A stretch of DNA of 64,000 nt from Myxococcota bacterium (GCA_044344255.1 JBIJDH010000020.1:64001-128000), one strand, 5' to 3'. Shown: positions 10,401 through 60,563, counted from the stretch's first letter. Translations and numbers: made by a program. The notes: a model not told the origin generated them from the letters alone.

Positions 10401-13400
10401 CCTCCGCCGGGGTGAAGGGGGACTGGACGAGGAGCTCGGCCACCTCGCCGGCCTGGAAGGACTCCTGGTTGGGGATCAGCACCACCTGCTGCTGCTCGAC
10501 GGTGCGGCTGGGCTTGGCCTCCCCGCCCGACACCCACACCGTGGTGCGGGTCTGGTTGCTGCGGCCCTGGGCGTCGACCACGGTGGCCTCGAGGGTGAAG
10601 GCGCCGCCCGCCTTGGGCTTGAAGGTGGCGCGGACCGGCTCCGTGCCGGAGGTGAGCTCGAGGGTCTGGCGCTCGACCTCCTCCTCCTTCCATTGCCCGT
10701 TCGGCTGCACCTTCCAGGCCTTCCGCACGAAGGCCAGCGCCACCGCTCGGCCGGCCACCGCGCCGCCGTCGATGTTGGGGGTGACCAGGGTGAAGGTGAC
10801 GTCCTGACCTTCATTGTAGAAGGGTCGATCGAGCTTCACGCCGACGTAGACCGAGGCCGGGTGGAGCAGCAGGCTGGTGGAGCCGGTCCAGGCCTGTCGG
10901 TTCACGTCCTGCACCGTGGCGGTGGCCTGAACCGTCATCGGCCGCGCCGGCTTGAGCGCGGCGAAGTGCATGTCGAGGTGGTGCTTGCCGGTGGCGTCGG
11001 TGCTGCCCTTCAGGGTCCAGGGCCCACCCTCCGGGGTGACCTCGCCGCCGCCCTCGTCGCCCCACCAGCTCCGCTGGAGCCACCAGGGCGTCCACTCCCC
11101 GAAGCTGTACTCGCCCCAGCCGGGGGGGCTGAAGCTGCCGGCGGTCGCGGTGACGGTCCAGTGGGTCTCGGCGCCAGGGAGCGCGCCACCTGCGTAGTAG
11201 TTGGCCGAGACCGTGGCGAGGGCGGACTGGCCGAGGACGTGCGGGCCGACCGTCTCGACGCTGGCGCTCACCTCGAACTCGGGCCGACGGAACTCCTGGA
11301 CCTGGAACCCGTAGTTGCTGGCGGTGTTCGTGAGGCCGCCGAAGCCCTCCGCCACGAGCAGGAAGGTGGCGTCACCGAGGTTCATCTCGCTCGGGATCTT
11401 CGCCTTGAGATCGAAGCCGCCGCTCTCATCGACGGGGGTGCTGCCGCTCAGCACGTCGTTGCCGACCGCGTCGCGGAGGGTCCAGCGCACGGTGCGGCGC
11501 TCGGGGGGGAGCGCGGCGAGGTCACCACCCTCCCGGTTCTGCCAGGCCCGCAGCCAGCCCTTGACGAAGACCTCCTCGCCGGGGCGCGCCATGTGGCGGT
11601 CGTCAAAGACGTACCAGAGCAGCCGATCGCTGTGATCGCGCTTCACCCAGCTTGTGCTGTACCAGCCGTGGTTCTGGTCTTGCTCGCTCAAGATGGCGAC
11701 GTCGCCGCCGCGGCGAGCGACGAGCAGGGTGGGGGTCTCGCCGCCCGGGCTGGCCGAGGGGAGCGGCAAGCGGGCGAGGCCGTCGGCGGCCGTGCGGGCC
11801 CCGGCCGCGCCAGTGCCACCGGGGAGGATCGAGAGCTCGACGTCGGAGAGGGGCTTGCCGGTGGCGAGGTCGGTGGCCCAGGCCAGCAGCTCATCGGCGT
11901 CGCTCATCGCGGTCAGACCGATGTCGGTCACCTGCACCCAGACGAGCACCCGCTGGCGGTCCCACTTGTCCTTGGGCGGCTTCGTCGGCTCGACCATCAC
12001 GACGAGCTGGCCGTGGCCCTCGGTGAGGAAGGGCCGGAGATCGAGGTTCGTCTCCACCTGGGTGTCGGCCACCGCCTGCACCGGCACCTTCTGGTCGATG
12101 AGCAGCGCCCCCGGGAGCTTCATGCCGCGGTCTTCCGCGTCCCAGGTGCGCATCCAGGCCCCGAAGGCGCCCCAGTCCCCGGGGGTGACCCGGAAGACCT
12201 TCATCCGCAGCGCCTCATGGTTGACGGAGTAGACCGTGAGCGCCGGATCGCCGATGGGATCGAGCAGCACGGTGTTCCGCGGCGGGCCGGAGAGCTGCGG
12301 CCGCAGGGCCTCGGCCTTGCCCACCTTGAAGGTGGCCGACCAGGCCCGCTCGCTCACCTGCCCGAAGCTGTCCTTCAAGCCCGGCTTGACCTTTACGGTG
12401 TAGGTGGTCTGCGGCTTGGTGGCCCCCTGGACCTGCAGCCAGGCCCCGGAGACGAAGATCGAGGCGCCCGGCAGCGGCGGCGAGATCTCGACGAGGGCGG
12501 GGTCAAAGGCCTCGCCGTCGAGCGGGTTCGAGAACTGGAGCTGCCAGCCCGTGCCGGGGCGGCAGTCTTTGTTCCAGCCGCAGCGGCTGTCGACGAGGTT
12601 GAGCTCGCCGTAGGTGCGGAAGCTGCTCGACTGGGCCTTCGGGGTGCGGAGCGGGCCCTCGGCAGAGGGGGCGCCCGCCTCCACCATCACCGTCATCGAG
12701 GTGGCGAAGGGCAGGGGCGCCGTGGGCCGCAGCACGAGGAAGCGGTCGGGCTGCAAGCCCTGGACGCGCAGACGCATGTCGGCGTCGGCCTCGATCTCGG
12801 GGGCGTCGGCGAGGCGGAAGGGGAAGGCGGTCTGCCCGAAGCGGAGCTTGATGTGGCCCGACATCTGCTCGCGATCGATCTTCTGGTCAAAGGAGACGAG
12901 GATGAGCGGGTCGCGCACGGTCGGGCCGCCGACGGGGCTCCAGCCGGTCACCTGCGGAGCGGGGGTGGTGAAGACCCGCTCGAAGGGCTGGGGGAGCGCG
13001 CCGCCGCTGGCCGACTTCGTGCCCGCCAGCACCCGCATGGTGTACTTCGTGGCCATCGGGAAGCGGCCATCGGGCTCGAAGAGCAGCGTGCGGGTGCCGA
13101 TCCAACGCCACTGGCCGGGGGGCGTGGGCTCGAGCACGACGGGCCGCGTCGCCGCCGCCTCCGCCACGCTCGTCACGGCCACCATCGGCTGGTTGAAGGT
13201 GACGCTGAGCGAGGCCGCGATGGGCACGTCGCCCTCTGGGGAGGCCCGCAGCACCTGGAGCGGGCCCGCCACGACGGCCTCCGGCGCCGACAGCTCCCCG
13301 GGCGGCGGGAAGGTCTCGGCCACGGTCTCGCCCTTCAGCGGGGGCGGAAGCGAGTCCGGACGCTTGGCGAAGTCGACCCGGTCGCCGGTCGCCTCCTCCA

Positions 13401-13671
13401 ACTTCGGCAGGCGGGCGAGGAGGCCCGCGGTCTCCGCCTCCGAGAGGGCCACCGCGGGGGTGGCGGCGCTGCGCTCCACCCGGCCGCCAGGAGGGGTGGC
13501 CTCGGAGAGCTCGATTCGAACGACCGGCTCTACAGGGTTCGCATCGAAGACCAGCTTCATCGTAGACTCCGCGGCAGAGGCGCCGTCGTCGAGGCCCTCG
13601 GGGGCCGTCAAGGCCGGGCGCTTGCAGGTGCAGAGGAGGACCAGGCCGAGGCCGGCGAGGAGGCGACGCAT
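7444..13671 (-). CDS. Full-length bacterial alpha-2-macroglobulin with N-terminal Ig-like domains and thioester motif
   Basis: 2075 aa; MG2 (FDDRHMARPGE, VQEFRRPEFEV); low-complexity bait region; LPDSLTRYR; PRFLNFGD; thioester YPYGCAEQ; C-terminal ARATTPGAFVVPPAKAEEMYHPE. Confidence 0.92.
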   Translation of the reverse strand: MRRLLAGLGLVLLCTCKRPALTAPEGLDDGASAAESTMKLVFDANPVEPVVRIELSEATPPGGRVERSAATPAVALSEAETAGLLARLPKLEEATGDRVDFAKRPDSLPPPLKGETVAETFPPPGELSAPEAVVAGPLQVLRASPEGDVPIAASLSVTFNQPMVAVTSVAEAAATRPVVLEPTPPGQWRWIGTRTLLFEPDGRFPMATKYTMRVLAGTKSASGGALPQPFERVFTTPAPQVTGWSPVGGPTVRDPLILVSFDQKIDREQMSGHIKLRFGQTAFPFRLADAPEIEADADMRLRVQGLQPDRFLVLRPTAPLPFATSMTVMVEAGAPSAEGPLRTPKAQSSSFRTYGELNLVDSRCGWNKDCRPGTGWQLQFSNPLDGEAFDPALVEISPPLPGASIFVSGAWLQVQGATKPQTTYTVKVKPGLKDSFGQVSERAWSATFKVGKAEALRPQLSGPPRNTVLLDPIGDPALTVYSVNHEALRMKVFRVTPGDWGAFGAWMRTWDAEDRGMKLPGALLIDQKVPVQAVADTQVETNLDLRPFLTEGHGQLVVMVEPTKPPKDKWDRQRVLVWVQVTDIGLTAMSDADELLAWATDLATGKPLSDVELSILPGGTGAAGARTAADGLARLPLPSASPGGETPTLLVARRGGDVAILSEQDQNHGWYSTSWVKRDHSDRLLWYVFDDRHMARPGEEVFVKGWLRAWQNREGGDLAALPPERRTVRWTLRDAVGNDVLSGSTPVDESGGFDLKAKIPSEMNLGDATFLLVAEGFGGLTNTASNYGFQVQEFRRPEFEVSASVETVGPHVLGQSALATVSANYYAGGALPGAETHWTVTATAGSFSPPGWGEYSFGEWTPWWLQRSWWGDEGGGEVTPEGGPWTLKGSTDATGKHHLDMHFAALKPARPMTVQATATVQDVNRQAWTGSTSLLLHPASVYVGVKLDRPFYNEGQDVTFTLVTPNIDGGAVAGRAVALAFVRKAWKVQPNGQWKEEEVERQTLELTSGTEPVRATFKPKAGGAFTLEATVVDAQGRSNQTRTTVWVSGGEAKPSRTVEQQQVVLIPNQESFQAGEVAELLVQSPFTPAEGVVTWRRTGLVQAQRFTMTSSTTVLKVPIEEGMVPNLNVQVDLVGAAPRAGAAAEDLTAKPLRPAYATGTVNLRVPPLQRTLGVAVRPREAAVEPGGSTTLDVSVKDASGRPVAGSLVAVVVVDESVLALSGYSLPDPIGAFYFDRGAEVYDSHSRAMLWLVDPSALADQAPGGLGLSGEGFGGGGAADGDMLRDGGEREVRPMAAPPPAPAAAPTSGAASVTRAAPKMKAQMEMAESAPDEPAQPTGPAIAVRTNWNPTALWLPATPTDAAGKAVVQLKLPDSLTRYRITAVAVSGGQRFGKGESSVTARKALMLRPSAPRFLNFGDRFELPFVVQNQTDQPIEVDLAVRAVNATFSGAASAGQRFTVPANDRAELRFPTETVSSGKARFQAAVSPRSHVDWSDAAEISLPVWTPATSEAFATYGELDGKEASVTLRQPVTLPGEVWTQFGGLEVSTSSTQLQALTDAVIYLTDYPYGCAEQLSSRVLGVAALKDVLGAFEAPGLPDAAALQRATAADIEELAFRQNSDGGWAFWRKGQESWPYVSVHVAHALVRAEAKGFAVPRATRDRALGYLRAIERRIPREYGPEARRTLTAYALYVRQLAGDGDVKRAVSLTEEWGGVDKMSLEAIGWLLPTWKAGGQGTLLAQAMRQLNNKVTETASDAHFVTSYGDDAYLLLHSDRRVDAILVDSLIQVDPKNDLIPKVVRALLGHRVKGRWSSTQDNIWVLLAMDRYFHTYEGVTPDFVARVWLGDRFAGEHRFKGRTTETSEIDVPMAWLSDTAGAEGKTRDLIVARQGAGRLYYRVGMRYAPKDLTLAAFDAGFAVERRYEAIDDPSDVRREADGTWTLRAGSRVRVRVTMVAPARRTHVALVDPLPAGLEVLNPELKVVGDLPPDQQKTGPMPPPWGGRGGWWRWWGPWYDHENMRDDRVEVFASLLWDGVHEYSYVARATTPGAFVVPPAKAEEMYHPETFGRSATDRVVIK

Positions 13672-23014: not shown

Positions 23015-23082
23015 CTGGCATCCATCAAAACTGCATGATATTGGCCTTGATTCGGGTAGAATCCATCAGAATTGAGGTACCC

Positions 23083-23379
23083 TTGGACGACCTCCTCCTC
23101 GCGCTCACCCCCGCCGACGTCGAGGCTGCGCTGGCGCGTCGCCTCCGCGACGCGAGGCGGGCCCGGGGGTGGACCCAGGCCGAGCTGGCGACGCGGAGCG
23201 GCCTGTCTGTGGCGACGGTCGCCCGGCTCGAGCAGTCGGGACAGGGGCAGCTCTCGTCGCTCATCCACCTGTGCGGGGCGCTCGGACGCCTCGATGACTT
23301 CGACGCCGTGCTGAAGTCCACAGCCCCGTCGTCGCTCGCCGAGCTCCGTCGTCGGCAGGGTCGCGGGGGGGCCCTGTGA
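23083..23379 (+). CDS. XRE-family HTH protein, HipB-like antitoxin
   Basis: LRDARRARGWTQAELATRSGLSVATVARLE; GAGGT RBS before a TTG start; GTGA overlap with the toxin gene. Confidence 0.85.
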   Translation: MDDLLLALTPADVEAALARRLRDARRARGWTQAELATRSGLSVATVARLEQSGQGQLSSLIHLCGALGRLDDFDAVLKSTAPSSLAELRRRQGRGGAL

Positions 23380-24635
23380 GGGAGCTCCGCGTCCACCTGC
23401 GCTTCTCGGAGGCAGAGGTCCACAGCGTCGGCACCCTGGCCGACGACGGCCACCGGGTCTGGTTCGAGTACGATCCTGCCTTCGCCGCGGGGCGGATGGA
23501 GATCTCCCCCCTGCGCCTCCCGCTCACGCGGTCTGGGCTGATCGAGCACCGGGTCACCGCCGGGGCCCCCATCCCGGGCGTGTTCAACGATGCCCGCCCC
23601 GAGGGCTGGGGCCTCAAGCTGCTGCATCGCGCCTTCCAGCGGAAGGGCAGGCCCGCGTCGTCGGTCTCGCCGCTCGAGGAGCTCGCCTTCCTCGGCCAAC
23701 ACACCATGGGCGCGCTGGTGTTCGAGCCATGCACCGGCCCGTCGGGCGACCTCGACGAGGCCGTCGCGCTCGCGGCGCTCGCCGCGCACGCCCAGACCGT
23801 CTGGGACGACCGTGTTCAGGTGGTGTTGCCGCACCTTGTCCGCGCAGGCGGCCCGTCCGGCGGTGCGCGGCCGAAGGCGCTCGTCGGGCTGCGCGCCGAT
23901 GGCGAGCCAGGCATCCGCTACGGTGAGGGTGAGCTCCCGGAAGGCTGGGACGCCTGGCTCGTGAAGTTCCCGACGAGCACCGACGATGCCGACGTCGGTC
24001 GCCGCGAGGCCGCCTGGATGGCGATGGCTCGCTCCGCGGGGATCGATGTACCTGAGTTTCGGGTGATCGCGCTCGAGGGGGTCGGCGACGCCTTCGCGGT
24101 GCGGAGGTTCGATCGCCCGGGTGGGGGTCGCCGGCGGCACATGCTCTCTGCGGCGGGCGCGCTCGACGCCGACTTTCGCACACCCGCTGCCGACTACGAG
24201 CACCTTCTCCGGATAACATCGCACCTCTGCGGGGGTGACCAATCGCAGATCCTGGCGATGTTCCGTCTGGCCTCCTTCAACGTGCTGGCGCTGAACGACG
24301 ACGACCACCTGAAGAACTTCGCCTGGCTCCTCGGACCCGACGGCGCGTGGCGGCTCGCGCCCGGCTTCGACCTCACCTACGCGCCCCGCCCCGACGGTGA
24401 GCGGTGGACCACCGTGGCGGGCGCGGGGCGGTCCATCGGCGGGGAGCACCTGCTCGCGCTCGCGGCCAGGGTCGGGATCAAGCCGCGCGCGGCACGACAG
24501 GCGCTGGAGGAGGTGAGCTCCGCGACGGCCGAGGTCCAGGCGCACCTCGGGCAGGCCGGTTGCCTCGGACCGGTCTCAGAGGCCGCCGCGGAGGCCGTAC
24601 AACAAGCGACGGCGAGGGTTCGCGGCGCGGCCTGA
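23376..24635 (+). CDS. hipA: HipA-family kinase toxin (type II TA)
   Basis: N-terminal couple_hipA-like region (VGTL..FEYD, ISPLRLP); GGARPK; WLVKF; RRFDR; NDDDHLKNF; LAPGFDL. Confidence 0.9.
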   Translation: MRELRVHLRFSEAEVHSVGTLADDGHRVWFEYDPAFAAGRMEISPLRLPLTRSGLIEHRVTAGAPIPGVFNDARPEGWGLKLLHRAFQRKGRPASSVSPLEELAFLGQHTMGALVFEPCTGPSGDLDEAVALAALAAHAQTVWDDRVQVVLPHLVRAGGPSGGARPKALVGLRADGEPGIRYGEGELPEGWDAWLVKFPTSTDDADVGRREAAWMAMARSAGIDVPEFRVIALEGVGDAFAVRRFDRPGGGRRRHMLSAAGALDADFRTPAADYEHLLRITSHLCGGDQSQILAMFRLASFNVLALNDDDHLKNFAWLLGPDGAWRLAPGFDLTYAPRPDGERWTTVAGAGRSIGGEHLLALAARVGIKPRAARQALEEVSSATAEVQAHLGQAGCLGPVSEAAAEAVQQATARVRGAA

Positions 24636-25555: not shown

Positions 25556-25595
25556 CCCGGCCCCCCTCACCATGTCCCGGCCTCCCTCACCATGT
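25556..25595. repeat. 20-bp tandem duplication CCCGGCC(C/T)CCCTCACCATGT x2, spanning the stop codon of the TPR gene
   Basis: Units at 25556-25575 and 25576-25595, 1 mismatch. Confidence 0.9.
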
Positions 25596-27617
25596 GGTGA
25601 GGAAGCGGTCCACCTCTTCACGCTCCAACATGCCGAGCGAGAACTGGAGACAGTTGGAGCAGATATCGACGTGCCCGAGGCGGAAGAGCCCGCTCACCTC
25701 GAAGGGGGAGCGCCCGCAGAGCTTGCAGGTGGCGTCGTCGGGGGCGGCCATCGAGGCGCGGCTGTGGCTGATCTTGAGGACACACTTGTCACAGATCACC
25801 ACGTCGCCGCCCGCCATCATGTGGGTCACCTCCCCGGGCTGCCGGTTGCAGGTGCTGCACCGCGTCTCCTCGCCGTCCGAGACCCGCCGCGGCCGCGCCG
25901 GCCCCGAGGGCGGGGTGACCTGGTTGAGCAGGTGGTCGACGATCGCGGTGGCGCCGCGCAGCACGGCGCGGTCGTGGAGGCGGCGGGTGGCCTCGGGCTC
26001 GCCGTACATGGCGAGGGCGGCCCAGGCGGCCACCGAGAGCTCCGGGTCTGCCACCTCGGCCCAGCGGCGGAGCAGCTCCTTGCCGGCGGCGCTGCGGCGG
26101 AGGCCGATCGAGAGCAGGAGCAGGGCCTGATAGGCGCGGGCGCCGTTCCGCTCGGCGTCGAGGTTGCGGCGGTGCGCGGTGACGTCGTGGGCCGGCGGGT
26201 AGCGGTCGACGGCGGCCCGCTTGAGGTCGGACTCCTCGAGCTGCAGCCCGGAGATGAGCACGGGCTCGGGCACAGCGGGGGCCGCGGAGAGGGCGAGGCC
26301 GCCGAGGTTGACGCCGAAGTGGCGGCCGGGCTCGCGCAGGCGCACGCTGGCGGCGTCGGCCACCTGGCTGGTCGACAGGTTGCAGGCCGCCTCCCAGAGC
26401 TGGAAGCGCAGCGCCTCGTCCTGGCTGCGGTCGATGGTGGCGAGCATCGGCCCCACGGTGGAGGGGCCCACAGCCCGCAGCTCGTCGAGGATCACGCGCA
26501 CCCGCTCCCGGGTGCGGCCGCGGGCGTCGTCGGCGCCGCCGGGGGGCAGCCGGTCGTAGCCGCCGACCTCGGACTCCAGCGCCATCACGAGCCAGCGCAC
26601 GTCGCCGCCGATGCGCCGGGCGCGGGCGAGCTCGATGTAGCTCGGCAGGTGGCCCGGGTGGTCCTTCAGGGCCTCGCGGAAGACGCGCAGGGCCTCGTTC
26701 GGCTCACCCTCCTCGAGCAGCGTGCAGCCGAGGGCGTGGCGGGCCAACACATCGTCGGGATCGGCGAGCAGGGCCTGATGGCAGGCCTCGCGGGCCCGCG
26801 GATACTCCCCGAGCTGGAACCAGGCCATCGCCATCCGGGCGAGCACCTTCGGATCATCCGGCTTCTCGCGCAGATACTGCCGAAAGTGCTGGATGGCGTT
26901 GTTGTACTTGCCGAGCTCGTACGCGACGAGGCCGAGGTGAAAGCGGGCCAAGGCGGCGTACTTCGGCTGCTCGCGCAGACGGAGGAAGAACTTCTCGGCC
27001 TCCTTGTGCCGCCCGGTGAGCATGCAGGTGATGCCGAGGTCGCGCAGCAGCAGCGGGAGCTGGTCGGGGGCGGGGTCGCGCTTGAGCGTCTGGACGAAGT
27101 GGTACTGGGCCCGCTCGACGAGCCGCTTCGGGTGCCCCTTCCGACGGGCGAGGTCGAGCAGGGCGTGGCCGAGCTCGAGGTGGGTCTCCCAGGAGTCGGC
27201 GGCGAGCCGGCAGGCGCTCTCGAGCTGGCGGACGGCCTGGCCCGCCTCGTCGCGGAGGAGGTCGAGGCGGCCGAGCGCGAGGCGGAGGTCGGCCCGCTCC
27301 CCGTCGATGCGCACCGCCTGGTCAAGGTAACGGGTGGCGGCCTTGGGGCGATCGATGCCGATCAGGGAGAGCCCGGCCAGCACCAGGGCCTCGGCGTTGG
27401 AGGGGTCGTCGTTGAGCGCCTTCCGCGCCAGCGCCAGCGCCCGATTGCAGTCCTGCTCCCCGCCGCTGTGGTACAGCCCGCGCGAGAGCACCGCCCGCGC
27501 GAGCTCGATGCGAGAGGCCGGGTCGTCGGGAGAGCCGTGGATACGGTCCTCCAGCCGGCTGATCGTCCAGTCGAGCTTGGTGTGCGGGAAGAGGGTGTGT
27601 AGCGGCGGGGTCGTCAT
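25587..27617 (-). CDS. TPR-repeat protein with two C-terminal ClpX-type C4 zinc fingers
   Basis: Multiple TPR-like helices, then CSTC..MMAGGDVVICDKC and CKLC..LFRLGHVDICSNC. Confidence 0.82.
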   Translation of the reverse strand: MTTPPLHTLFPHTKLDWTISRLEDRIHGSPDDPASRIELARAVLSRGLYHSGGEQDCNRALALARKALNDDPSNAEALVLAGLSLIGIDRPKAATRYLDQAVRIDGERADLRLALGRLDLLRDEAGQAVRQLESACRLAADSWETHLELGHALLDLARRKGHPKRLVERAQYHFVQTLKRDPAPDQLPLLLRDLGITCMLTGRHKEAEKFFLRLREQPKYAALARFHLGLVAYELGKYNNAIQHFRQYLREKPDDPKVLARMAMAWFQLGEYPRAREACHQALLADPDDVLARHALGCTLLEEGEPNEALRVFREALKDHPGHLPSYIELARARRIGGDVRWLVMALESEVGGYDRLPPGGADDARGRTRERVRVILDELRAVGPSTVGPMLATIDRSQDEALRFQLWEAACNLSTSQVADAASVRLREPGRHFGVNLGGLALSAAPAVPEPVLISGLQLEESDLKRAAVDRYPPAHDVTAHRRNLDAERNGARAYQALLLLSIGLRRSAAGKELLRRWAEVADPELSVAAWAALAMYGEPEATRRLHDRAVLRGATAIVDHLLNQVTPPSGPARPRRVSDGEETRCSTCNRQPGEVTHMMAGGDVVICDKCVLKISHSRASMAAPDDATCKLCGRSPFEVSGLFRLGHVDICSNCLQFSLGMLEREEVDRFLTTW

Positions 27618-30254: not shown

Positions 30255-33200
30255 ATGCCCACCTGCGGGAGGTGTGGTGTGGCGGAAGGAAGCGAAAACT
30301 CGACCGAGCGGCTGAAGCGGAAGGGCAAGAAGGTCCTCGCCTGGACCCTCGGATCCATGGGCCTGCTGGCCCTGCTCTGCGCCTCCCGCGTCACGTGCCT
30401 GTCCTCCTGGGCCCTCTACGGGGTGCGGATCCCCGAGTGCCCCTCCGGGGACCTTCGACAGACCGCCGAGCTCGAAGCCTCCTCCCTCCGCCGGAACAGC
30501 GTCGGCTACGTCACGCTCCGCGCGTCGGCCCACTACACCACGGGCCAGGCAGACCAGGACCAGTCCGCCTATGTGCACCGCCTCGACGGGGAGCTCTCGC
30601 TGGTCGATGCGAGCGGCAAGGTCACCCCCCTCGAGCCCGAGGACGGCTGGGACGAGGACGGTGTCACCCTCTCCGCGCAGATCAAGCTCCCCGAGGTGCC
30701 GGACGGCGACTACACGCTCCGCGGCGTCGTCTCCACCCCGATCGGCGAGAGCACGGTAGAGGCGCCCCTCCCCATCTACGCCCCCGCCCGGGTGCATGTC
30801 ATCACCGACCGGCCCCTCTACGAGCCGGGCAACAGCATGGCCTTTCGTGCCGTCGTGCTGCGCGCGGCCGACCTCGCCCCCCTCGATGGGCGCCCCGGCA
30901 AGTGGATCGTGAAGGATCCTTCAGGCGAGGTGCTGCTCGAAGAGAAGGCCCCCGCCGGCGAGTGGGGCGTGGTCTCGGGCTCCTTCCCGATTGACCGCGA
31001 AGCCACGAGCGGCCCCTGGACGGTGAGCTGGGTCTCCGGAGATGCCTCGGCCGACGCCGTCGTCACCGTCGAGCCCTTCACCCTGCCGCGCTTCCGCGTC
31101 GAGGTCACCCCCAACCAGGGCTGGTATCGGCCGGGAGACCGCCCGGTCGTCACGGGGCGGGTGGTCTACAGCTCGGGCGCGCCGGTGGCCGGGGCCGCGG
31201 TGGAGCTCAATTGGAGCGTGTCCGGCGACTGGCCGCCCCCCACCGACTGGCTGGAGGGCGCGCTCCCGAAGGAGGCCATCACCGACAACGACGGGCGCTT
31301 CGTCCTCACGCTGCCTCAGATCCCCGCTGACCTCCAGGGCCGAAGCACCCTCTCCGCCAGCGTCGCCGCCACCGACCCCGCCGGAGACCGTGTGGGCGGC
31401 GGTCTGTCCCTGCTGCTGAGCGAAGATCCGCTCCAGGTCACGGCCGTCACCGAGCTCGGGGACGGGCTCGTCGAGGGCTTCAACAACCGCATGTACCTCC
31501 GGGCGACCACCCCCACGGGAGACCCCCTCGTCGGCACGACGCTGCGGCTCCGCCCCTCCTATGACCCCACCGCCAAGCCCCGCGAGGCCAAGACCGACGA
31601 GGACGGCGTCGCGGCCTTCCAGGTCGACCCCGGGCCCGCGATCAACGTGGTCATCCCCGCCAAACCCTATCGGCCCCCGGCCCGCGAGCCCGGGGTCAGT
31701 CGTTCGAACACCCAGGCCCTCCTCGGCAATGGGGAGGATGAGCTGCCGCTGGCCGACCAGCTCGCCCTCGACCGCCTCGTGGGGGGACTCCAGGACTGCG
31801 CACGTTTCGTGAGCGGCAGCGAGAACGCCCATGTGGCGCTGGTCATCGAGGCCTCGGGCGCCATCCGCGACGCCGTGGCCCTCGGTCGGCCGGGTGAGTG
31901 TCTCGCCGCTGGCCTCCGCGGCCGCTCCCTGTCGGCGACCGGCACCACCCGGGTCTACTCGGTCGATTATTCTATCACCGACCAGGACCTGCCGAAGGTC
32001 AGCTACAGCCAGGACGAGGCCACCGGCTCGAACGGAGAGGTCTCTGAGCTGCTCAATCTCGCCGTGCTCGACGCCCGGAGCTGCCTCCCGGCCGACCTCT
32101 CCGACACCGACCTCGGTCAGGCCCTGCTCTGGCGGGTGCGCGCCGGCAGCACGGTGATCGAGCCGAGCTGGGCCTCCAACGGCGAGGGCACCGCCCTCCG
32201 CCCGGACACCGTGGCCTGCTTGAAGGAGCGGCTGCCCCCCCGCCGCCTCCCCGAGCCGGCCGACGAAGATGCCCTCGCGGTCGTCACCTTCGCGGTCTCC
32301 CCCTCTCCCCGGGCCAGCGCCGAGCGCCCGCAGCCCACCACTCTGCTCGGCTACAGCTTCCGCGTGTCGGCGGGAGAGGGCGACGAGAAGATCGGTGAGA
32401 CCACCCTCGTCCAGCGGCCGGGCACGGTGCCGAACCTCCGGATCCGCGCCACCCCGGTGCTCGCCAAGGCCGGAGACGCGGTGGAGATCGAGCTCCTCCG
32501 CGGGCCCGACTTCAACAGCGAGCTCCCCGAGAAGCTCCAGATGACGAGCCCCAAATTCAAGGCCCTCGAGGTCGAGCTGGACAAGGAGACCCGAAAGACC
32601 ACCTTCACCCTCCCGCCCGACGCCGAGGGCTGGTTCCAGGTGAGCGTGATGGGGGCCCTCGCGCGGGTCTTCGTGGCGCCGAAGTCGCAGCTCCAGCTCG
32701 AGCTCTCCTCCGACAAGCGGGTCTATGCCCCCGGAGAGACCGCCACCCTCGGCCTGCTCACCACCGAGGGCGGACAGGGTGTACAGGCGGCGGTCACCCT
32801 GATCGGCGTCGATCAGAGCCTCGGTCAGCTCGCCCCCCTGCCCGGCGCCGACCACATGGGCGGGCTCCGCCCCAAGGTCACCACAAACCAAGCGGCCTTC
32901 GACATCCTCGACGGCGAGGCCCTCTCGCTCGGGCGCGTGCGGGGAGCGAACGCCGCCGCCGCCGTGGTCTTGCGCGTGAGCGACGTCCCCCAACCCGAAG
33001 ACCTCGACCGCTACACGAGCGCCAGCGGGCGGGGCCGCTTCGACGCCGTGGCCGACCTCACCGACCACTTCTACACCGTGCTCGGTGAGCTCCACAACGC
33101 GGTGCGGGCCTGGGAGAAGGCCGCGGGCAAGGATGAGAAGATGAAGCCGGAGAAGATGGCCGAGCTCTGGGAGACGGCCCTCGAGGCCGCCGCCGGCAAG

Positions 33201-33362
33201 AAGCAGCCCGTGACCGACGCCTACGGCCGCCGCATCCGCCTCTCCCAGCTCCCGCCCGACCTCCTCGCCCTCACCGACCCGCGCGCCGTCGTCATCGACG
33301 GCACCCACCTCCCTGAAGACATCGAGAACTGGTCCGCCTGGGTCGCCCGGGAGCAGCCATGA
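30255..33362 (+). CDS. A2M-like N-terminal chain (MG domains), with no bait, TED or C-terminal part
   Basis: ITDRPLYEPG (MG2); VEPFTLPRFRVEV; YSSGAPVAGA; LSSDKRVYAPGE..IGVDQSL; N-terminal TM/signal. The start is uncertain. Confidence 0.8.
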   Translation: MPTCGRCGVAEGSENSTERLKRKGKKVLAWTLGSMGLLALLCASRVTCLSSWALYGVRIPECPSGDLRQTAELEASSLRRNSVGYVTLRASAHYTTGQADQDQSAYVHRLDGELSLVDASGKVTPLEPEDGWDEDGVTLSAQIKLPEVPDGDYTLRGVVSTPIGESTVEAPLPIYAPARVHVITDRPLYEPGNSMAFRAVVLRAADLAPLDGRPGKWIVKDPSGEVLLEEKAPAGEWGVVSGSFPIDREATSGPWTVSWVSGDASADAVVTVEPFTLPRFRVEVTPNQGWYRPGDRPVVTGRVVYSSGAPVAGAAVELNWSVSGDWPPPTDWLEGALPKEAITDNDGRFVLTLPQIPADLQGRSTLSASVAATDPAGDRVGGGLSLLLSEDPLQVTAVTELGDGLVEGFNNRMYLRATTPTGDPLVGTTLRLRPSYDPTAKPREAKTDEDGVAAFQVDPGPAINVVIPAKPYRPPAREPGVSRSNTQALLGNGEDELPLADQLALDRLVGGLQDCARFVSGSENAHVALVIEASGAIRDAVALGRPGECLAAGLRGRSLSATGTTRVYSVDYSITDQDLPKVSYSQDEATGSNGEVSELLNLAVLDARSCLPADLSDTDLGQALLWRVRAGSTVIEPSWASNGEGTALRPDTVACLKERLPPRRLPEPADEDALAVVTFAVSPSPRASAERPQPTTLLGYSFRVSAGEGDEKIGETTLVQRPGTVPNLRIRATPVLAKAGDAVEIELLRGPDFNSELPEKLQMTSPKFKALEVELDKETRKTTFTLPPDAEGWFQVSVMGALARVFVAPKSQLQLELSSDKRVYAPGETATLGLLTTEGGQGVQAAVTLIGVDQSLGQLAPLPGADHMGGLRPKVTTNQAAFDILDGEALSLGRVRGANAAAAVVLRVSDVPQPEDLDRYTSASGRGRFDAVADLTDHFYTVLGELHNAVRAWEKAAGKDEKMKPEKMAELWETALEAAAGKKQPVTDAYGRRIRLSQLPPDLLALTDPRAVVIDGTHLPEDIENWSAWVAREQP

Positions 33363-35743
33363 GCCTCACCGCCCCCCGCGCCCTCCTCCCCCTCGGCCTC
33401 TCTGCGGTCGCCCTCGCGGGCTGCGCCGACCGTGAAGCGTCGAAGTCGGCCCCCCCCGCGCCGATGGAGGAGAGCGTCGAGCAGGACCTCCGCGCGATCG
33501 GCTACGACGGCGCTGGCATCGCCACCGGCGGCGCCGCGGCCCCCGCCTCCGCCGCGCCGATGGCCAAGAAAGAGGTTGGCCGGGTCGGCCGAAAGATGAA
33601 GGCCGACAAGCCCGCCGACGAGGCCCCGATGGCGGAGGCAGCGCCGAGCGAGGCCGACTCCGAGGGCGGCGAGGCGGCGCCCTCCCGCTCCTGGTTCCCC
33701 GAGACCTTCCTCTTCCAGCCCCGGGTGGTGACCGACCGCGACGGCCGGGCCTCCGTCCCCGTGCGCATCCCCGACCGGCTCACCACCTGGCGCGTCCTCG
33801 GCCTCGCCTGGTCCCGACAGGGCGGTCAGTCCGGCGACACCACCGAGCTGCTCGGCACCCTGCCCGTCTATGTAGACCCTGTCCTCCCCGCCTTCCTCAA
33901 GGCCGGTGACCGCCTGCGCCTGCCCATCCAGGTCGTCAACACCACCGACGGCCCCCTCACCGTGCCCCTGCGGGTCAACGCCGGCGGCGCCGCGCACCTC
34001 GCGAGCGCTGGCACCGTCTCTCTCCCCGCCGGGGGGAGCCGCGTCTCCTATGTCGAGCTCTACGCCGAGCAGGCCGGCACCGTCTCCCTCGAGGCCTCTA
34101 TCGGCAGCAAGGACGCCGTCGTGCGCACCTTCCCCGTCGAGCCCGTCGGCCGCAAGCTCGAGCAGACCCGCGGCGGCACCCTCGCCGCCCCCCGACAGGT
34201 CGAGCTCATCGGCGCGAGTGACCTGGACCCCGCCAGCGCCCGCGTGCGCCTCCTCGTCTATCCGGGCGCCAAGGCCATCCTCCAGAGCGAGCTCGCCACG
34301 GCGTTGGACCGCGGTGGGGTCGCCTCGACAGGCTATTCGCTGCTCCTATCGGGACAGGGCGCCGCCCTACTGCAGTCCCTCGGCGTCCCCGTCTCCGCCA
34401 CCGGCGCCGACGATGACGCCCGCGCCGCCGCTTCCGCCCTCCACGACATGGGCCTCCTCGCCGGCCAGCGGGCCGTCCGCTTCGGCCGCGCGCCGGACAC
34501 CGCCAGCGCCGCCCTCCTCGCCGAGGGCTGCCTCGCCCACCCCGAGAGCCCCGTCATCGCGCGCCTGGGCGAGCGACTCCTCGGCCAGCTCGTCGCAGGG
34601 CAGCGCCCCGACGGCACCTTCGGCGGGGACAGCAGCGGCGCCTGGACGCTCCAGCGCCTCCTCCTCGCCACCGCAGACGCCGCCGCCACCGTCCGCCGCG
34701 CCGCCCAGTCGCCGACCGGGGACAGAGACCTCGACGCCAAACGAAAGCGCGACGCCGCCGCCGTCTCCCTCCGCGCCGGCGGCGCCTTCGAGCGCTACGC
34801 CGCCCAGGTCACCGACCCCTACACCGCCGCCGCCATCCTCCGCTCCGGCGCCATCTCCGGCGACCTCGCCGCCACGCTCCTCGAGCGGGTCGAGTCCGGC
34901 CTCGTCGAGAACCTCGACGGCTCCCGGTCCCTCCCCGTCCCCGAGGGCGTCGTCCGCGCCGACGGTGCGGTCCCCTCCGGCGTCGAGGCCACCGCGATGG
35001 CCGTCCTCGCCCTCGAGGGCCGCGGAAAGGACGACACGGTCGCCGATCTCGGCGCCTCCCTCCTCGGCGCCTGGCGCCCCGGCCGCGGCTGGAGCGACGG
35101 CCGGACAGACCTCCTCGCGCTGCAGGCCGTGCTCGCCCTCTTCAAAGACCCCATGCCGAACACGGTGACCGTCACCCTCTCGATGGACGGCGCCCCGGTC
35201 GGAAAGAAGGTGCTGGGCCTCGCCGAGCTCGATGAGGTCTCCCTCCTCGACCTCCCCGCCACCGCCGCCCGCGGCCTCCACACCTGGACCGTCTCCGCCG
35301 AGCCCGCCGTCCCCGGCCTCGGCTTCGCCCTCACCCTCGAGAGCTGGGTGCCCTTCGTCGCCACCCCCCAGAACGGCCTCGAGCTCCAGGTCACCACCGG
35401 AGAGGCGCCGGCGGTCGGTCGAAAGGTGCCCGTGATGGTGCAGGCCGCCGCACCCGCCGGGATGGCCCTCGTCTATCGACAGGAGCTCCCGGCTGGCGTC
35501 GTCCCCGATATGGACAGCCTCCAGGCTCTCGTGACGAGCGGCACGATCTCGAAATTCGACACCGAGGACGGCGCCCTGTCCTTCAACATCCCCGCCCTGT
35601 CACCCGGGCAGGTCTTCTCCGCCGGCTATGCGCTCGTACCCACCCTCGCAGGCACGCTCCACAGCGGGCCCGCCTCGCTCAGCCCCGCGGCGGACCTCGA
35701 CGTGGCCGCGCTCTCTGTGCCGGGGGTGTGGACGGTGCGGTGA
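33359..35743 (+). CDS. A2M-like C-terminal chain, lipoprotein, no thioester motif (copy 1)
   Basis: LAGC lipobox; low-complexity segment; RSWFPETFLFQP, IPDRLTTWR, PAFLKAGD, QRPDGTFG; no CxEQ. ATGA overlap with the upstream gene. Confidence 0.85.
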   Translation: MSLTAPRALLPLGLSAVALAGCADREASKSAPPAPMEESVEQDLRAIGYDGAGIATGGAAAPASAAPMAKKEVGRVGRKMKADKPADEAPMAEAAPSEADSEGGEAAPSRSWFPETFLFQPRVVTDRDGRASVPVRIPDRLTTWRVLGLAWSRQGGQSGDTTELLGTLPVYVDPVLPAFLKAGDRLRLPIQVVNTTDGPLTVPLRVNAGGAAHLASAGTVSLPAGGSRVSYVELYAEQAGTVSLEASIGSKDAVVRTFPVEPVGRKLEQTRGGTLAAPRQVELIGASDLDPASARVRLLVYPGAKAILQSELATALDRGGVASTGYSLLLSGQGAALLQSLGVPVSATGADDDARAAASALHDMGLLAGQRAVRFGRAPDTASAALLAEGCLAHPESPVIARLGERLLGQLVAGQRPDGTFGGDSSGAWTLQRLLLATADAAATVRRAAQSPTGDRDLDAKRKRDAAAVSLRAGGAFERYAAQVTDPYTAAAILRSGAISGDLAATLLERVESGLVENLDGSRSLPVPEGVVRADGAVPSGVEATAMAVLALEGRGKDDTVADLGASLLGAWRPGRGWSDGRTDLLALQAVLALFKDPMPNTVTVTLSMDGAPVGKKVLGLAELDEVSLLDLPATAARGLHTWTVSAEPAVPGLGFALTLESWVPFVATPQNGLELQVTTGEAPAVGRKVPVMVQAAAPAGMALVYRQELPAGVVPDMDSLQALVTSGTISKFDTEDGALSFNIPALSPGQVFSAGYALVPTLAGTLHSGPASLSPAADLDVAALSVPGVWTVR
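33653..35743 (+). repeat. Direct repeat, copy 1 (about 2.09 kb), matching 58473-60563
   Basis: Manual alignment at constant offset 24,820 with no indels; about 58 substitutions counted by hand (about 97% identity). Confidence 0.97.
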
Positions 35744-56007: not shown

Positions 56008-57594
56008 ATGAACTCCTCGCCGCTGCTGCTCCTCACCCTCTGCCTGTCCTGTGGCGGGGAGACCCGCCCTACCCCACCCGCACCGGTCGGACCGCCGCCG
56101 GGCAAGCCCGCGGGTTCAGGTGGCCCCGGAACGCCGGGGGGGAGGGCATCTTTCGACCCCGGGCCGGAGAACCTCACCGACGCCTGGACCGCCGAGCTCG
56201 GCGCCGCCGTCGATCCCATACCCCAACCGCCAACCTGCCCGGACGCCGATCAAGACGGCTTCTTCGCCGCCACCGCCTGCCCGGGTGCCGATGCCGCCAC
56301 CCTGGACTGCGATGACCAGGACCCCACGGTCACCCCCGCGACCGAGCGCTGGGTCCGGCCCGGGCCCTTCCTCATGGGCAGCAGCTCCACTCAGGCCGGG
56401 GCCGACGAAAAGCCCGTCCACGTCGTGCAGATGTCGGGCTACTGCCTCGAGCGAACCGAGGCTTCGGTGGCCGATCTCGCCGCCTGGTTCCTCTCTACCG
56501 GCCGGAAGCCCGAAGGCGCCGATGTGCGCAGCCTCGACACCGACGGCCGGGCCGAGCTTGGCCGGGAGGCCCAGCCCGCCGAAGGGCTCACCTGGGCCGA
56601 AGCAGACGCCTTCTGTCGCAGCCGCGGCAAGGCCCTCCCCACGGAGGCCCAGTGGGAGAAGGCAGCCCGCGGCGGCTGCGAGCTCGGAAGCAGCCCCACA
56701 GCCTGTGACCCGGCCGACCTCCGGCCCTATCCCTGGGGGGACGCGGCCCCCACCTGCGCCCTCGCCAATCACCAGCACACCGGGGGGGGAGTGCCTACGC
56801 TCTGTGTCTCCGATACGAGTCCGGCGAATGATCCCGCCGCCAACCTGGGCCCGTATGGGCATCAGAACCTGGCCGGCAATGTGTGGGAATATACGGCCGA
56901 CCTCTGGCACCCCCATGTGTATGGCCCCGGCCGGAGAGACCCCGGTGGCCCGACCCCGGGCGCCTCTGCGCTGCCCCATGTGTTACGCGGCGGCGGCTGG
57001 AACACCTTCTCCACCAATATGCGGGTGGCCAATCGATTCACCGACCTCGTCATGGGCTCCGCGGTGGGTGTCCGCTGTGCGCGCCCCACGGTGGAGCCGG
57101 TTCCTGACCAGCCGGTTCCGCTTCAAATGGTCAAGGTGTCGGGCACCCTGAAGCGGGATGAGGGCAGCTTCACGGGCCGCGCCGTCTATGTTGTCGCCTT
57201 CGACAATGAGGACGCTGACCCCCAAAGCGGAATGGTACCGCCGGGGCGCTCACCGGTCGCGGAGCGGCGCTTCCCGCCGAGCGGCGCGACGGAGCAGGAA
57301 TTCAGCATCGACGTCCCGGCCGGGGCCAGCTATCGAATTTTCGCCTCCTTCGACGACGGCACAGGGAATGACAAAGACGCCTATCGCTCCTCCTCGGGGA
57401 GCGGCGGCATCGGGATGGTGCAAGAGAGCATCTCAACCGTCTCCGGCCCGGTCGAAGGGATCTCCATCACCATCGCAAAGATGCCCAAGCCGCCTCCCGG
57501 AGGTCGTCCGCCGGGGCCACCGCCCGATGGACAGGGTCCGCCGGGGCCACCGCCCAATGGACAAGGTCCGCCGAATGGGAGCCCGCCTCGGTGA
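56008..57594 (+). CDS. FGE-sulfatase domain lipoprotein with one MopE-like motif and a Pro-rich tail
   Basis: LSC lipobox; DADQDGF..DCDD; LPTEAQWEKAARG; YPWG; LAGNVWE; RGGGW; GVRC; PPGPPP(D/N)GQG repeats. Confidence 0.85.
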   Translation: MNSSPLLLLTLCLSCGGETRPTPPAPVGPPPGKPAGSGGPGTPGGRASFDPGPENLTDAWTAELGAAVDPIPQPPTCPDADQDGFFAATACPGADAATLDCDDQDPTVTPATERWVRPGPFLMGSSSTQAGADEKPVHVVQMSGYCLERTEASVADLAAWFLSTGRKPEGADVRSLDTDGRAELGREAQPAEGLTWAEADAFCRSRGKALPTEAQWEKAARGGCELGSSPTACDPADLRPYPWGDAAPTCALANHQHTGGGVPTLCVSDTSPANDPAANLGPYGHQNLAGNVWEYTADLWHPHVYGPGRRDPGGPTPGASALPHVLRGGGWNTFSTNMRVANRFTDLVMGSAVGVRCARPTVEPVPDQPVPLQMVKVSGTLKRDEGSFTGRAVYVVAFDNEDADPQSGMVPPGRSPVAERRFPPSGATEQEFSIDVPAGASYRIFASFDDGTGNDKDAYRSSSGSGGIGMVQESISTVSGPVEGISITIAKMPKPPPGGRPPGPPPDGQGPPGPPPNGQGPPNGSPPR

Positions 57595-58130: not shown

Positions 58131-60563
58131 ATGCGCCCCCGCAGCTCCCGCCCCTGCAGCTCCCGTCCCTGCAGTCCCGGCCCCCGCAGCCCTCGCCCCG
58201 AGCGCCTGCTGCTGACCCTCAGCCTGCTCGCGGCCTGCGGGGGGGTCTCGCAGGAGGCCCCCGTCCCCACCTCGGCGCGCGACGAGGGCAAACAGATGGC
58301 CCAGGAGCTCGGCTACGCCGAAGAGGAGGCGCAGGCGGAGGCCCCGTCGCCCAAGGGGGCCGGCGGGCCGAGGCGGAGCCAGAACCGAGCGGCGCCCGCC
58401 CGGGGCGGCGGGACGAAGAAGGAGTCGAAGGACGCCGAGAAGGCAGACCCCGCCGTCCAGGGGGACTCTCCTGCCGACCCCGAGGGCGGCGAGGCGGCCC
58501 CCACCCGCTCCTGGTTCCCCGAGACCTTCCTCTTCCAGCCCCGCGTGGTGACCGACCGCGACGGCCGGGCCTCCGTCCCCGTGCGCATCCCCGACCGGCT
58601 CACCACCTGGCGGGTGCTCGGCCTCGCCTGGTCCCGACAGGGCGGTCAGTCCGGCGACACCACCGAGCTGCTCGGCACCCTGCCCGTCTATGTAGACCCT
58701 GTCCTCCCCGCCTTCCTCAAGGCCGGTGACCGCCTGCGCCTGCCCATCCAGGTCGTCAACACCACCGACGGCCCCCTCACCGTGCCCCTGCGGGTCAACG
58801 CCGGCGGCGCCGCGCACCTCGCGAGCGCTGGCACCGTCTCTCTCCCCGCCGGGGGGAGCCGCGTCTCCTATGTCGAGCTCTACGCCGAGCAGGCCGGCAC
58901 CGTCTCCCTCGAGGCCTCTATCGGCAGCAAGGACGCCGTCGTGCGCACCTTCCCCGTCGAGCCCGTCGGCCGCAAGCTCGAGCAGACCCGCGGCGGCACC
59001 CTCGCCGCCCCCCGACAGGTCGAGCTCATCGGCGCGAGTGACCTGGACCCCGCCAGCGCCCGCGTGCGCCTCCTCGTCTATCCGGGCGCCAAGGCCATCC
59101 TCCAGAGCGAGCTCGCCACGGCGCTGGACCGCGGTGGGGTCGCCTCGACAGGCTATTCACTGCTCCTGTCGGGACAGGGCGCGGCCCTCCTCCAGTCCCT
59201 CGGCGTCCCTGTCTCTGCCGCTGGCGCAGACGACGACGCCCGCGCCGCCGCCGCCGCCCTCCACGACATGGGCCTCCTCGCCGGCCAGCGGGCCGTCCGC
59301 CTCGGGCGCGCGCCGGACACCGCCGCCGCTGCCCTCCTCGCCGAGGGCTGCCTCGCCCACCCCGAGAGCCCCGTCATCGCCCGCTTGGGCGAGCGACTCC
59401 TCGGCCAGCTCGTCGCAGGGCAGCGCCCCGACGGCACCTTCGGCGGTGACAGCAGCGGCGCTTGGACGCTCCAGCGCCTCCTCGTCGCCACCGCCGACGC
59501 CGCCGCCACTGTCCGCCGCGCCGCCCAGTCGCCGACCGGGGACAGGGACCTCGACGCCAAACGCAAGCGCGACGCCGCCGCCGTCTCCCTCCGCGCCGGC
59601 GGCGCCTTCGAGCGGTACGCCGCCCAGGTCACCGACCCCTACACCGCCGCCGCCATCCTCCGCTCCGGCGCCGTCTCCGGCGACCTCGCCGCCACGCTCC
59701 TCGAGCGGGTCGAGTCCGGCCTCGTCGAGAACCTGGATGGCTCCAAGTCCCTCCCCGTCCCCGAGGGCGTCGTCCGCGCCGACGGTGCGGTCCCCTCCGG
59801 CGTCGAGGCCACCGCGATGGCCGTCCTCGCCCTCGAGGGCCGCGGAAAGGACGACACGGTCGCCGATCTCGGCGCCTCCCTCCTCGGCGCCTGGCGCCCC
59901 GGCCGCGGCTGGAGCGACGGCCGGACAGACCTCCTCGCGCTGCAGGCCGTGCTCGCCCTCTTCAAAGACCCCATGCCGAACACGGTGACCGTCACCCTCT
60001 CGATGGACGGCGCCCCGGTCGGAAAGAAGGTGCTGGGCCTCGCCGAGCTCGATGAGGTCTCCCTCCTCGACCTCCCCGCCACCGCCGCCCGCGGCCTCCA
60101 CACCTGGACCGTCTCCGCCGAGCCCGCCGTCCCCGGCCTCGGCTTCGCCCTCACCCTCGAGAGCTGGGTGCCCTTCGTCGCCACCCCCCAGAACGGCCTC
60201 GAGCTCCAGGTCACCACCGGAGAGGCGCCGGCGGTCGGCCGAAAGGTGCCCGTGATGGTCCAGGCCGCCGCACCCGCCGGGATGGCCCTCGTCTATCGAC
60301 AGGAGCTCCCGGCTGGCGTCGTCCCCGATATGGACAGCCTCCAGGCCCTCGTGACGAGCGGCACGATCTCGAAATTCGACACCGAGGACGGCGCCCTGTC
60401 CTTTAACATCCCCGCCCTGTCACCCGGGCAGGTCTTCTCCGCCGGCTATGCGCTCGTACCCACCCTCGCAGGCACGCTCCACAGCGGGCCCGCCTCGCTC
60501 AGCCCCGCTCAAGATCTCGAGGTGGCGGCACTGTCCGTCCCAGCAGTGTGGACGGTGCGCTGA
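58131..60563 (+). CDS. A2M-like C-terminal chain, lipoprotein, no thioester motif (copy 2)
   Basis: LAAC lipobox and a different N-terminal segment; near-identical to 33359..35743 from EGGEAAP onward. Confidence 0.85.
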   Translation: MRPRSSRPCSSRPCSPGPRSPRPERLLLTLSLLAACGGVSQEAPVPTSARDEGKQMAQELGYAEEEAQAEAPSPKGAGGPRRSQNRAAPARGGGTKKESKDAEKADPAVQGDSPADPEGGEAAPTRSWFPETFLFQPRVVTDRDGRASVPVRIPDRLTTWRVLGLAWSRQGGQSGDTTELLGTLPVYVDPVLPAFLKAGDRLRLPIQVVNTTDGPLTVPLRVNAGGAAHLASAGTVSLPAGGSRVSYVELYAEQAGTVSLEASIGSKDAVVRTFPVEPVGRKLEQTRGGTLAAPRQVELIGASDLDPASARVRLLVYPGAKAILQSELATALDRGGVASTGYSLLLSGQGAALLQSLGVPVSAAGADDDARAAAAALHDMGLLAGQRAVRLGRAPDTAAAALLAEGCLAHPESPVIARLGERLLGQLVAGQRPDGTFGGDSSGAWTLQRLLVATADAAATVRRAAQSPTGDRDLDAKRKRDAAAVSLRAGGAFERYAAQVTDPYTAAAILRSGAVSGDLAATLLERVESGLVENLDGSKSLPVPEGVVRADGAVPSGVEATAMAVLALEGRGKDDTVADLGASLLGAWRPGRGWSDGRTDLLALQAVLALFKDPMPNTVTVTLSMDGAPVGKKVLGLAELDEVSLLDLPATAARGLHTWTVSAEPAVPGLGFALTLESWVPFVATPQNGLELQVTTGEAPAVGRKVPVMVQAAAPAGMALVYRQELPAGVVPDMDSLQALVTSGTISKFDTEDGALSFNIPALSPGQVFSAGYALVPTLAGTLHSGPASLSPAQDLEVAALSVPAVWTVR
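58134..58193. repeat. Imperfect 15-bp tandem repeat x4 at the start of A2M copy 2
   Basis: CGCCCCCGCAGCTCC / CGCCCCTGCAGCTCC / CGTCCCTGCAGTCCC / GGCCCCCGCAGCCCT. Confidence 0.8.
58473..60563 (+). repeat. Direct repeat, copy 2, matching 33653-35743
   Basis: Same manual alignment as copy 1 (offset 24,820, no indels). Confidence 0.97.

Follow-up and report, generated by a model that had tools for sequence, protein, structure and literature searches.

Two overlapping genes in the window (the whole 64,000-nucleotide stretch of Myxococcota DNA analyzed here, from genome G000, completeness 95%) very probably encode the two chains of a single macroglobulin that assembles as a heterodimer. Judging from sequence and structure models, gene A is the equivalent of the β chain of complement and gene B (B1 in Table 1) that of the α chain; an ATGA overlap links the two genes, both products have export signals of their own, and the macroglobulin domain MG6 is predicted to be built from the two.

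Table 1. Features of the split macroglobulin genes, counted from the first nucleotide of the window.
Feature	Position	Strand	Remarks
Gene A	30255..33362	+	1035 aa; β-chain-like half: anchor helix, MG1–MG5, two TonB-C-like inserts, first MG6 half, linker, conserved helical tail
N-terminal hydrophobic helix of A, residues 21–46	30315..30392	+	Probable signal anchor, not a conserved lipobox; model helix and homolog N-termini
MG2 and MG2–MG3 linker, F275-T276-L277	30783..31085	+	Aligned to A2M F224-V225-L226, trigger-channel wall
TonB-C-like domain 1 (AgmX/PglI C-terminal type)	31695..31988	+	Invariant C515/C549; probability 94%
TonB-C-like domain 2	31989..32300	+	Invariant C610/C655; weaker assignment, probability 73%
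First half of MG6, residues 811–860	32685..32834	+	Pairs with strands of chain B in the complex model
Helical C-terminal tail of A, residues 929–1035	33039..33359	+	Conserved; no relative detected outside the family
ATGA stop/start overlap	33359..33362	+	Split point between A and B1
Gene B1 (= gene B)	33359..35743	+	794 aa; α-chain-like half: anchor, tether, α′NT, second MG6 half, MG7, CUB, thioester-less TED, MG8
Lipoprotein-type signal peptide of B1	33359..33424	+	LAG-C22
Tether in bait position, residues 23–109	33425..33685	+	Disordered, hypervariable
α′NT plug motif and second half of MG6	33686..33862	+	R110 and F113 invariant
RGGVA	34310..34324	+	Occupies the position of the thioester loop in fused relatives
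Gene B2	58131..60563	+	810 aa; second chain-B gene, no A beside it; own lipobox (LAA-C36), unrelated tether

Gene Pair and Predicted Fold

The two ORFs share a strand and four bases, as had been described in an earlier note on this DNA, and are flanked by prmC and an ORF of unknown type. A consensus scan of the coding strand found no promoter or terminator, and an NCBIfam search of A, B1 and B2 gave no match. The motifs on which the earlier note relied were all recovered: LSSDKRVYAPGE and GVDQSL in chain A, RSWFPETF starting at B residue 110, the lipobox LAG-C22 of B, and the absence of CxEQ from both chains. The HMM scan that it had proposed assigns MG2 to A (residues 179–262, E 6e-17) and the A2M domain to B (residues 116–204, E 5e-15), with an A2M_BRD match in A (residues 802–856) below the Pfam cut-off. 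The note had missed an insert of ~200 aa in A and the second B gene within the window. Elsewhere in the window, an HTH antitoxin-like gene is followed by a HipA-like kinase (23035–24635, +), a probable toxin–antitoxin pair, and a TPR protein (25587–27617, −) carries two C-terminal ClpX-type C4 zinc fingers.

An A2M fold is predicted for both chains, in agreement with what had been proposed. The model of A (pLDDT 93.5) places residues 177–911 on residues 138–652 of the C4 β chain (Z 15.2, rmsd 5.4, 437 aligned), and that of B (pLDDT 86.8, with most of residues 1–93 below 50) places residues 113–793 on native A2M 735–1468 (Z 24.8) and on TEP1r (Z 28.8), the C3 and C5 α chains also being among its best structural matches. 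Native forms outrank activated ones (C3b: Z about 20, rmsd 25), so that the predicted pose of B is native-like. The elements of the A2M superfamily thereby follow one another in order across the two genes: an MG ring, a split MG6, a CUB domain with inserted TED, and MG8, at the end of which, near C3 residue 1497, chain B stops.

Prediction of the complex between A176–1035 and B95–172 gave a score of 0.78, whereas the best of three controls scored 0.00; contacts agreed between runs to at least 96%, and the partner pLDDT was 76. The mark applied is reached by 116 of 157 solved pairs and by 2 of 215 mismatched pairs. In the model, A845–852 contacts B118–125 and B145–151, so that the B strands complete the MG6 of A, and further contacts reach MG2 and MG3. 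The score supports binding without showing it, because the halves of a split gene can pass by their likeness to solved A2M and C3 structures. The segment B95–111, including R110, makes no confident contacts, and since the model does not place it confidently, its threading through the trigger channel is something that we infer. With the split conserved, both folds recognizable and an inter-chain MG6 predicted, the A2M/C3-like two-chain heterodimer postulated beforehand is well borne out by the models.

Conservation of the Split Across Myxococcota

The window and 133 further loci yielded 127 B ORFs with the motif, of which 114 have A upstream, 3 stand behind another B, 3 are alone and 7 lie at a contig edge; four motif-less ORFs (broken or truncated) and two A genes at contig ends fall outside this count. 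None of the 127 is fused to A. After removal of one duplicate from the 114, the split is kept in all 113 distinct A–B pairs with enough flank, Myxococcus xanthus among the carriers, and the conservation of the split point that the earlier note had put up for checking is complete in this set. The overlap measures four bases in 110 pairs and one base in two, with a two-base gap in the remaining one, where the start of B was taken as the codon nearest to the A stop, a choice that favours overlaps; the chosen start precedes a lipobox in 65 of 116 and another anchor in 49 of 116.

Database searches within length windows returned 588 matches for B and 790 for A, and all homologs with names come from Myxococcota; the carriers of the split include M. 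xanthus AM003 and complete genomes of Archangium, Corallococcus, Cystobacter and Myxococcus. Among 61 related genomes, B is matched in 46 and A in 44 at E 0.001, counts that include weak matches to ordinary full-length A2Ms. Of 301 genomes sampled from the window's GTDB phylum, 25, all of the window's order, have split-type matches, and five others have weaker matches in long fused ORFs. A search of genome contigs with the family alignment recovered 360 relatives, 80 of which were kept; the same contigs searched with a single protein gave none.

No neighbour gene of A/B is conserved family-wide, and none for motility, transport or signalling was found in this position; a kinase family (27 loci) and synteny at the genus level make up the largest clusters of neighbours. 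At locus L112 (9401–10582, +), a gene with EAD1 and trypsin-like peptidase domains directly follows chain B, as it adjoins chain B at 17 other Myxococcus and Corallococcus loci, which is possibly mere genus-level synteny. Locus L023 (G019:C195) has a frameshifted chain-B gene behind an intact A. Divergent chain-B genes with long N-termini occur at L047, L049, L050 and L144; that of L047 is a multi-helix membrane region, and those of the other three are what we take to be GltG-like low-complexity linkers.

Chain A and Its Inserts

The earlier note held both chains to be membrane-anchored. This stands for the lipobox of B; chain A has no lipobox and is likely anchored by its N-terminal helix, the hydropathy of which is slightly below the 19-residue threshold. 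Within the ring, F275 and L277 of the MG2–MG3 linker are nearly invariant. The helical tail of A, which had been called unique, is so in part: residues ~929–1035 have no detected relative, with all Atlas matches below 0.85, whereas residues ~861–911 align structurally with the end of the C3/C4 β chain. Homology of the tail with the cassette of the fused relatives was considered but found no support (profile probability 0.25% and 1.2%), the two having only a D-x-[WY]-G motif in common.

Residues 481–682 of A are modeled as two α-β-β-α-β units, each with an invariant cysteine pair, and both cysteine-bearing inserts are kept across the family of A. They were compared with a profile built from 15 AgmX/PglI C-terminal domains that this genome encodes. 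Insert 1 scores 40.7 (best shuffle 16.6) and insert 2 scores 29.0 (best shuffle 12.5), with both cysteines aligned in each case; the controls, 30 column shuffles for each insert together with windows of A outside it, were well exceeded. Against NCBIfam NF033768, insert 1 matches weakly in 3 of 54 members of the chain-A family (best E 0.0037, cut-off not reached) and insert 2 in none of 53; Atlas, like NCBIfam, agrees weakly with the assignment. Pfam and PDB sequence searches do not name insert 1, and a profile comparison of the two inserts with each other gives a probability of 2%. On these profiles, the inserts are classed as distant TonB-C-like domains, relatives rather than members of the NF033768 family.

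Chain B: Anchor, Tether, and Lost Thioester

Anchor types vary among 116 distinct B genes, 65 having a lipobox, 49 another hydrophobic anchor and 2 an unclear one. The residue at position +2 of the 65 lipoboxes is G in 21, K in 20, A in 13 and another in 11; in the window's two B copies it is A and G, not K. A lysine at +2 favours the inner membrane for M. xanthus lipoproteins (PMC3222651).

Between C22 and RSWFPETF, B1 has about 87 low-complexity residues. Across the family, the tethers span 73–158 residues (median 91), are rich in A, G, P, E, S and D, and reach a column conservation of 21%, compared with 56–83% for the domains behind them. Residues B23–109 thus form an exposed variable segment ahead of the α′NT RxxF motif. 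Within this motif, R110 and F113 do not vary among 122 sequences, and their A2M counterparts in the alignment are R732 and F735. Several motifs recur among 213 tethers, namely EGKMG in 38 (shuffle maximum 1), KK/KR in 163 (maximum 113) and L-x-x-L-G-Y in 5 (maximum 1); shared ancestry partly accounts for them.

A CxEQ thioester is found in 0 of 120 database homologs of B and, in the thioester region, in 0 of 127 locus-derived B sequences. Profile alignment sets RGGVA of B against PAGCFEQ of the fused relatives, and the loss of the site across the family agrees with the earlier proposal of a protein working without covalent trapping. The TED region remains 62% conserved by column, devoid of the catalytic residues.

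A Second B Gene

Genome G000 has one A and two B genes. Comparison of the B1 and B2 bodies (B2 from 58506) gives 56 differences in 2058 bases and 10 in 685 residues (98.5% identical), whereas the N-termini are 30% identical; without the last 12 residues, the tethers resemble each other no better than shuffles do (149 of 500 reach the score). For comparison, in 31 homolog pairs with bodies at least 90% identical, the identity of the N-termini has a median of 63% and a minimum of 36%. Two database proteins carry B1-type and B2-type N-termini, which group by type (119/125 and 64/109 identical), while their bodies are 7 residues apart and 23–30 from the window's pair. If both proteins share one lineage, as their likeness would suggest, bodies and N-termini follow the pattern of concerted evolution. 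In other assemblies, the ten B1/B2-diagnostic residues form mosaics. In four lake runs, contigs are interrupted at the boundary of the shared body, and two-allele bubbles occur at the sites where B1 and B2 differ; shared-body contigs have 1.5 to 2 times the depth of the flanks in three runs and are not deeper in the fourth (X11), with the reservations that depth is not copy number, that one run is possibly the window's source, and that short reads cannot phase B1 and B2. It seems that gene conversion homogenizes the two bodies and leaves the tethers distinct.

One A is accompanied by two B in six genomes: G000, G010, G046, G190 (one contig), G217 and G305, where the second copy is a partial match. 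Three of those other than G000 have A-B-B runs, the bodies there being 44–72% identical. In a FastTree tree of 68 rows that lacks a true root, a one-clade test and MagD, all 37 split B form one clade (support 100) with four separate duplications. Duplication is not general, since five complete Myxococcaceae/Archangiaceae genomes carry a single B each. Just upstream of B2, a frameshifted or decayed lipoprotein ORF (57591–58080, +) overlaps the stop of a gene with an FGE-sulfatase domain; its signal-peptide DNA (57598–57668) is 87% identical to that of B2, the export signal of which may therefore come from a local duplication.

Fused Relatives and Known Macroglobulins

Fused bacterial TEPs (P0244, P0247, P0252, L053, L150, L152 and L153) are colinear with B over the whole post-bait length (probability 100%, E 1e-54) and with A over its MG domains (E 5e-47), apart from an insert of about 220 residues. 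Unlike A/B, they are one chain with PxGCFEQ intact and no TonB-C pair in MG4, and their bait position holds variable cassettes (4–6 TM helices, a TonB-C domain, or a DPWG-type domain). P0247, P0252, L150 and L153 are thioester A2Ms with 4–6 predicted TM helices between the first MG6 half and the α′NT motif; in L053 (5787–10832, −; 1682 aa), the bait position is occupied by a GltG-like region and by an AgmX/PglI TonB-C domain (NCBIfam E 2e-29); and P0244, P0245, P0246, P0256 and L152 have a DPWG...SAGPD...DD cassette before the bait, two of them with a further domain there. This cassette presumably resembles the C-terminal motif of the pseudopilin GspG. The split family may derive from relatives with TM helices in the bait position, which the tree neither supports nor excludes. 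Since the nearest fused relatives combine the thioester with the eukaryote-type Pfam domains TED_complement, A2M_recep and MG3, the thioester loss looks independent of MagD. The window also encodes a full-length bacterial-type A2M (7444–13671, −; 2075 aa) with PYGCAEQ and bMG3/bMG10 domains, of a clade distant from the split family.

Among the closest known parallels is complement. In C3, C4 and C5 (PDB 2a73, 5jpm, 7ad6), as in A/B, the break lies between the linker and the cleavable segment and MG6 is common to both chains, A aligning to the β chain and B to the α chain in the native pose. Complement, however, is one precursor processed by proteolysis, whereas A/B are two genes with two export signals; C3 has a folded ANA domain where B has a disordered, anchored tether; the C345C domain is absent from B; and A/B has no thioester, while A bears a helical tail besides its pair of TonB-C-like inserts. 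C5 likewise has no thioester. According to PMC9352918, furin cuts complement on the N-terminal side of the ANA domain, and the A2M stretch that follows the bait, including R732 and F735, runs through a channel whose walls are the MG2–MG3 linker (F224–L226) and the linker helix; plug and channel residues were tested there. With the plug residues in B and the channel residues in A, the split coincides with the processing site of C3, and the bait belongs to B.

Type I A2Ms (E. coli YfhM/ECAM and Salmonella SaA2M; PDB 4rtd, 4u48) resemble A/B in MG2 and in the MG6/MG7 region and have a family lipoprotein anchor, but are one chain with a thioester, often beside PBP1c, features that A/B does not share. 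The type II A2M MagD (YfaS class) likewise has no CxEQ, keeps a bait-position segment and is located in the envelope via membrane anchors (PMC5764988, PMC3735191); it is one chain with no anchor of its own in the six-gene mag/yfa operon, in contrast to two self-anchored chains with no conserved neighbours. PMC5764988 reports that MagD of Pseudomonas aeruginosa traps protease non-covalently, without a thioester, and that a thioester-dead Salmonella A2M did not trap.

Animal A2M/TEP genes have bait-region splice variants. One body is thus combined with alternative baits, here through duplication of a second gene with signs of gene conversion. For alternative baits, a tick paper cited in PMC12939704 indicates a precedent by its title. 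A literature search, in which subscription literature was sparsely covered, found no paper on a split bacterial or any myxobacterial A2M, and a term search did not find "split" in passages of PMC12939704 (a 2026 review) or PMC3735191 (the first MagD paper). Proteomic tables of M. xanthus may list the A and B proteins.

Possible Mechanism and Alternatives

On balance, we lean toward a periplasmic heterodimer that acts non-covalently and whose bait is kept in the trigger channel by an anchor up to the moment of cleavage by a protease. In one-chain A2Ms, bait cleavage allows the threaded segment to retract from the channel, which is formed by MG2, MG3 and the linker, and the large rearrangement is thereby triggered. 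A and B would be exported separately and assemble through MG6, and the lipid or TM anchor of B would take the place of C3's ANA domain, keeping the plug in the channel. Cleavage of the ~90-residue tether would free the plug, the complex being held on the membrane by A, and the rearranged complex would cage the protease non-covalently, as for MagD; alternatively, the switch may be read by partners, perhaps via the TonB-C-like domains of A. Several points weigh against such a trigger. A monomer without thioester is a weak cage. Lipoproteins commonly carry variable, disordered tethers, and tether variability alone therefore does not make a bait. Because a break in the bait itself triggers A2M collapse (PMC9352918), a permanently collapsed protein is possible, and since RxxF also binds MG7 after collapse, its conservation would be expected in that case too.

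That the locus is a disrupted single-chain gene, that a frameshift arose in sequencing or assembly, or that programmed read-through gives one polypeptide is hardly credible. P0243 (1801 aa) does join A and B, and the L023 locus does have a broken B; but P0243, the only close one among 27 longer matches, follows A to residue 924 and then runs out of frame into the intact signal peptide of B, and is for that reason a frameshifted A. Moreover, all 113 pairs retain the A stop, the B signal and the overlap, also where the sequence is the complete genome of a cultured strain, and B is found alone or in tandem. A more serious contender, although we consider it rather unlikely, is a structural or adaptor heterodimer of the envelope that has no protease trigger, the tether being a membrane spacer and the TonB-C-like domains binding outer-membrane or motility/transport partners, as in GltG/GltJ-type proteins. 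The loss of the thioester in 127 of 127 B genes, the family-wide conservation of the two cysteine-stapled inserts, the GltG-like TonB-C domain in the bait position of the fused relative L053 and the varying anchor type of B are all in keeping with such a scaffold. Yet the plug and channel residues rank with the best-conserved positions, B models in a native, trigger-ready pose, no motility or transport gene is among the conserved neighbours, and a mere spacer hardly explains two B with near-identical bodies and unrelated tethers.

A third possibility shares the protease trigger and differs in its outcome: as a C5-type signalling switch, the cut tether would expose the thioester-less TED or the TonB-C-like domains to a partner and the protease would not be held. 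The two-chain build and the absent thioester resemble C5, the C5 and C3 α chains are among the best structural matches of B, and the TED region keeps its conservation without catalytic residues; nevertheless, no partner was found and no conserved signalling gene lies nearby, and we regard this switch as improbable. To return to the anchored, protease-triggered heterodimer, its bait sits at the N-terminus of a gene separate from A, and duplication of B can therefore supply a single A with several baits. A bolder and quite tentative extension sees in A/B a bacterial, genetically two-chain counterpart of C3/C5, with the anchor as stopper, B as a swappable bait module whose bodies are homogenized by gene conversion as the baits diverge, several protease specificities per cell, and TonB-C-like domains coupling the switch to outer-membrane machinery.

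Implications

The A/B pair apparently represents an undescribed class of bacterial macroglobulins, neither type I nor type II, and it is carried by the tractable Myxococcus xanthus. In it, a two-chain division of the C3 type is seen to arise at the gene level in bacteria. Nature also provides here a test of the plug-in-channel trigger, the bait being interrupted on its N-terminal side from the outset: provided that the complex is native and can be triggered, an anchor alone suffices as stopper. Should paralogous tethers differ in protease specificity, they would be a bacterial counterpart of animal bait diversification, on a scaffold whose trigger swaps by the exchange of one gene.
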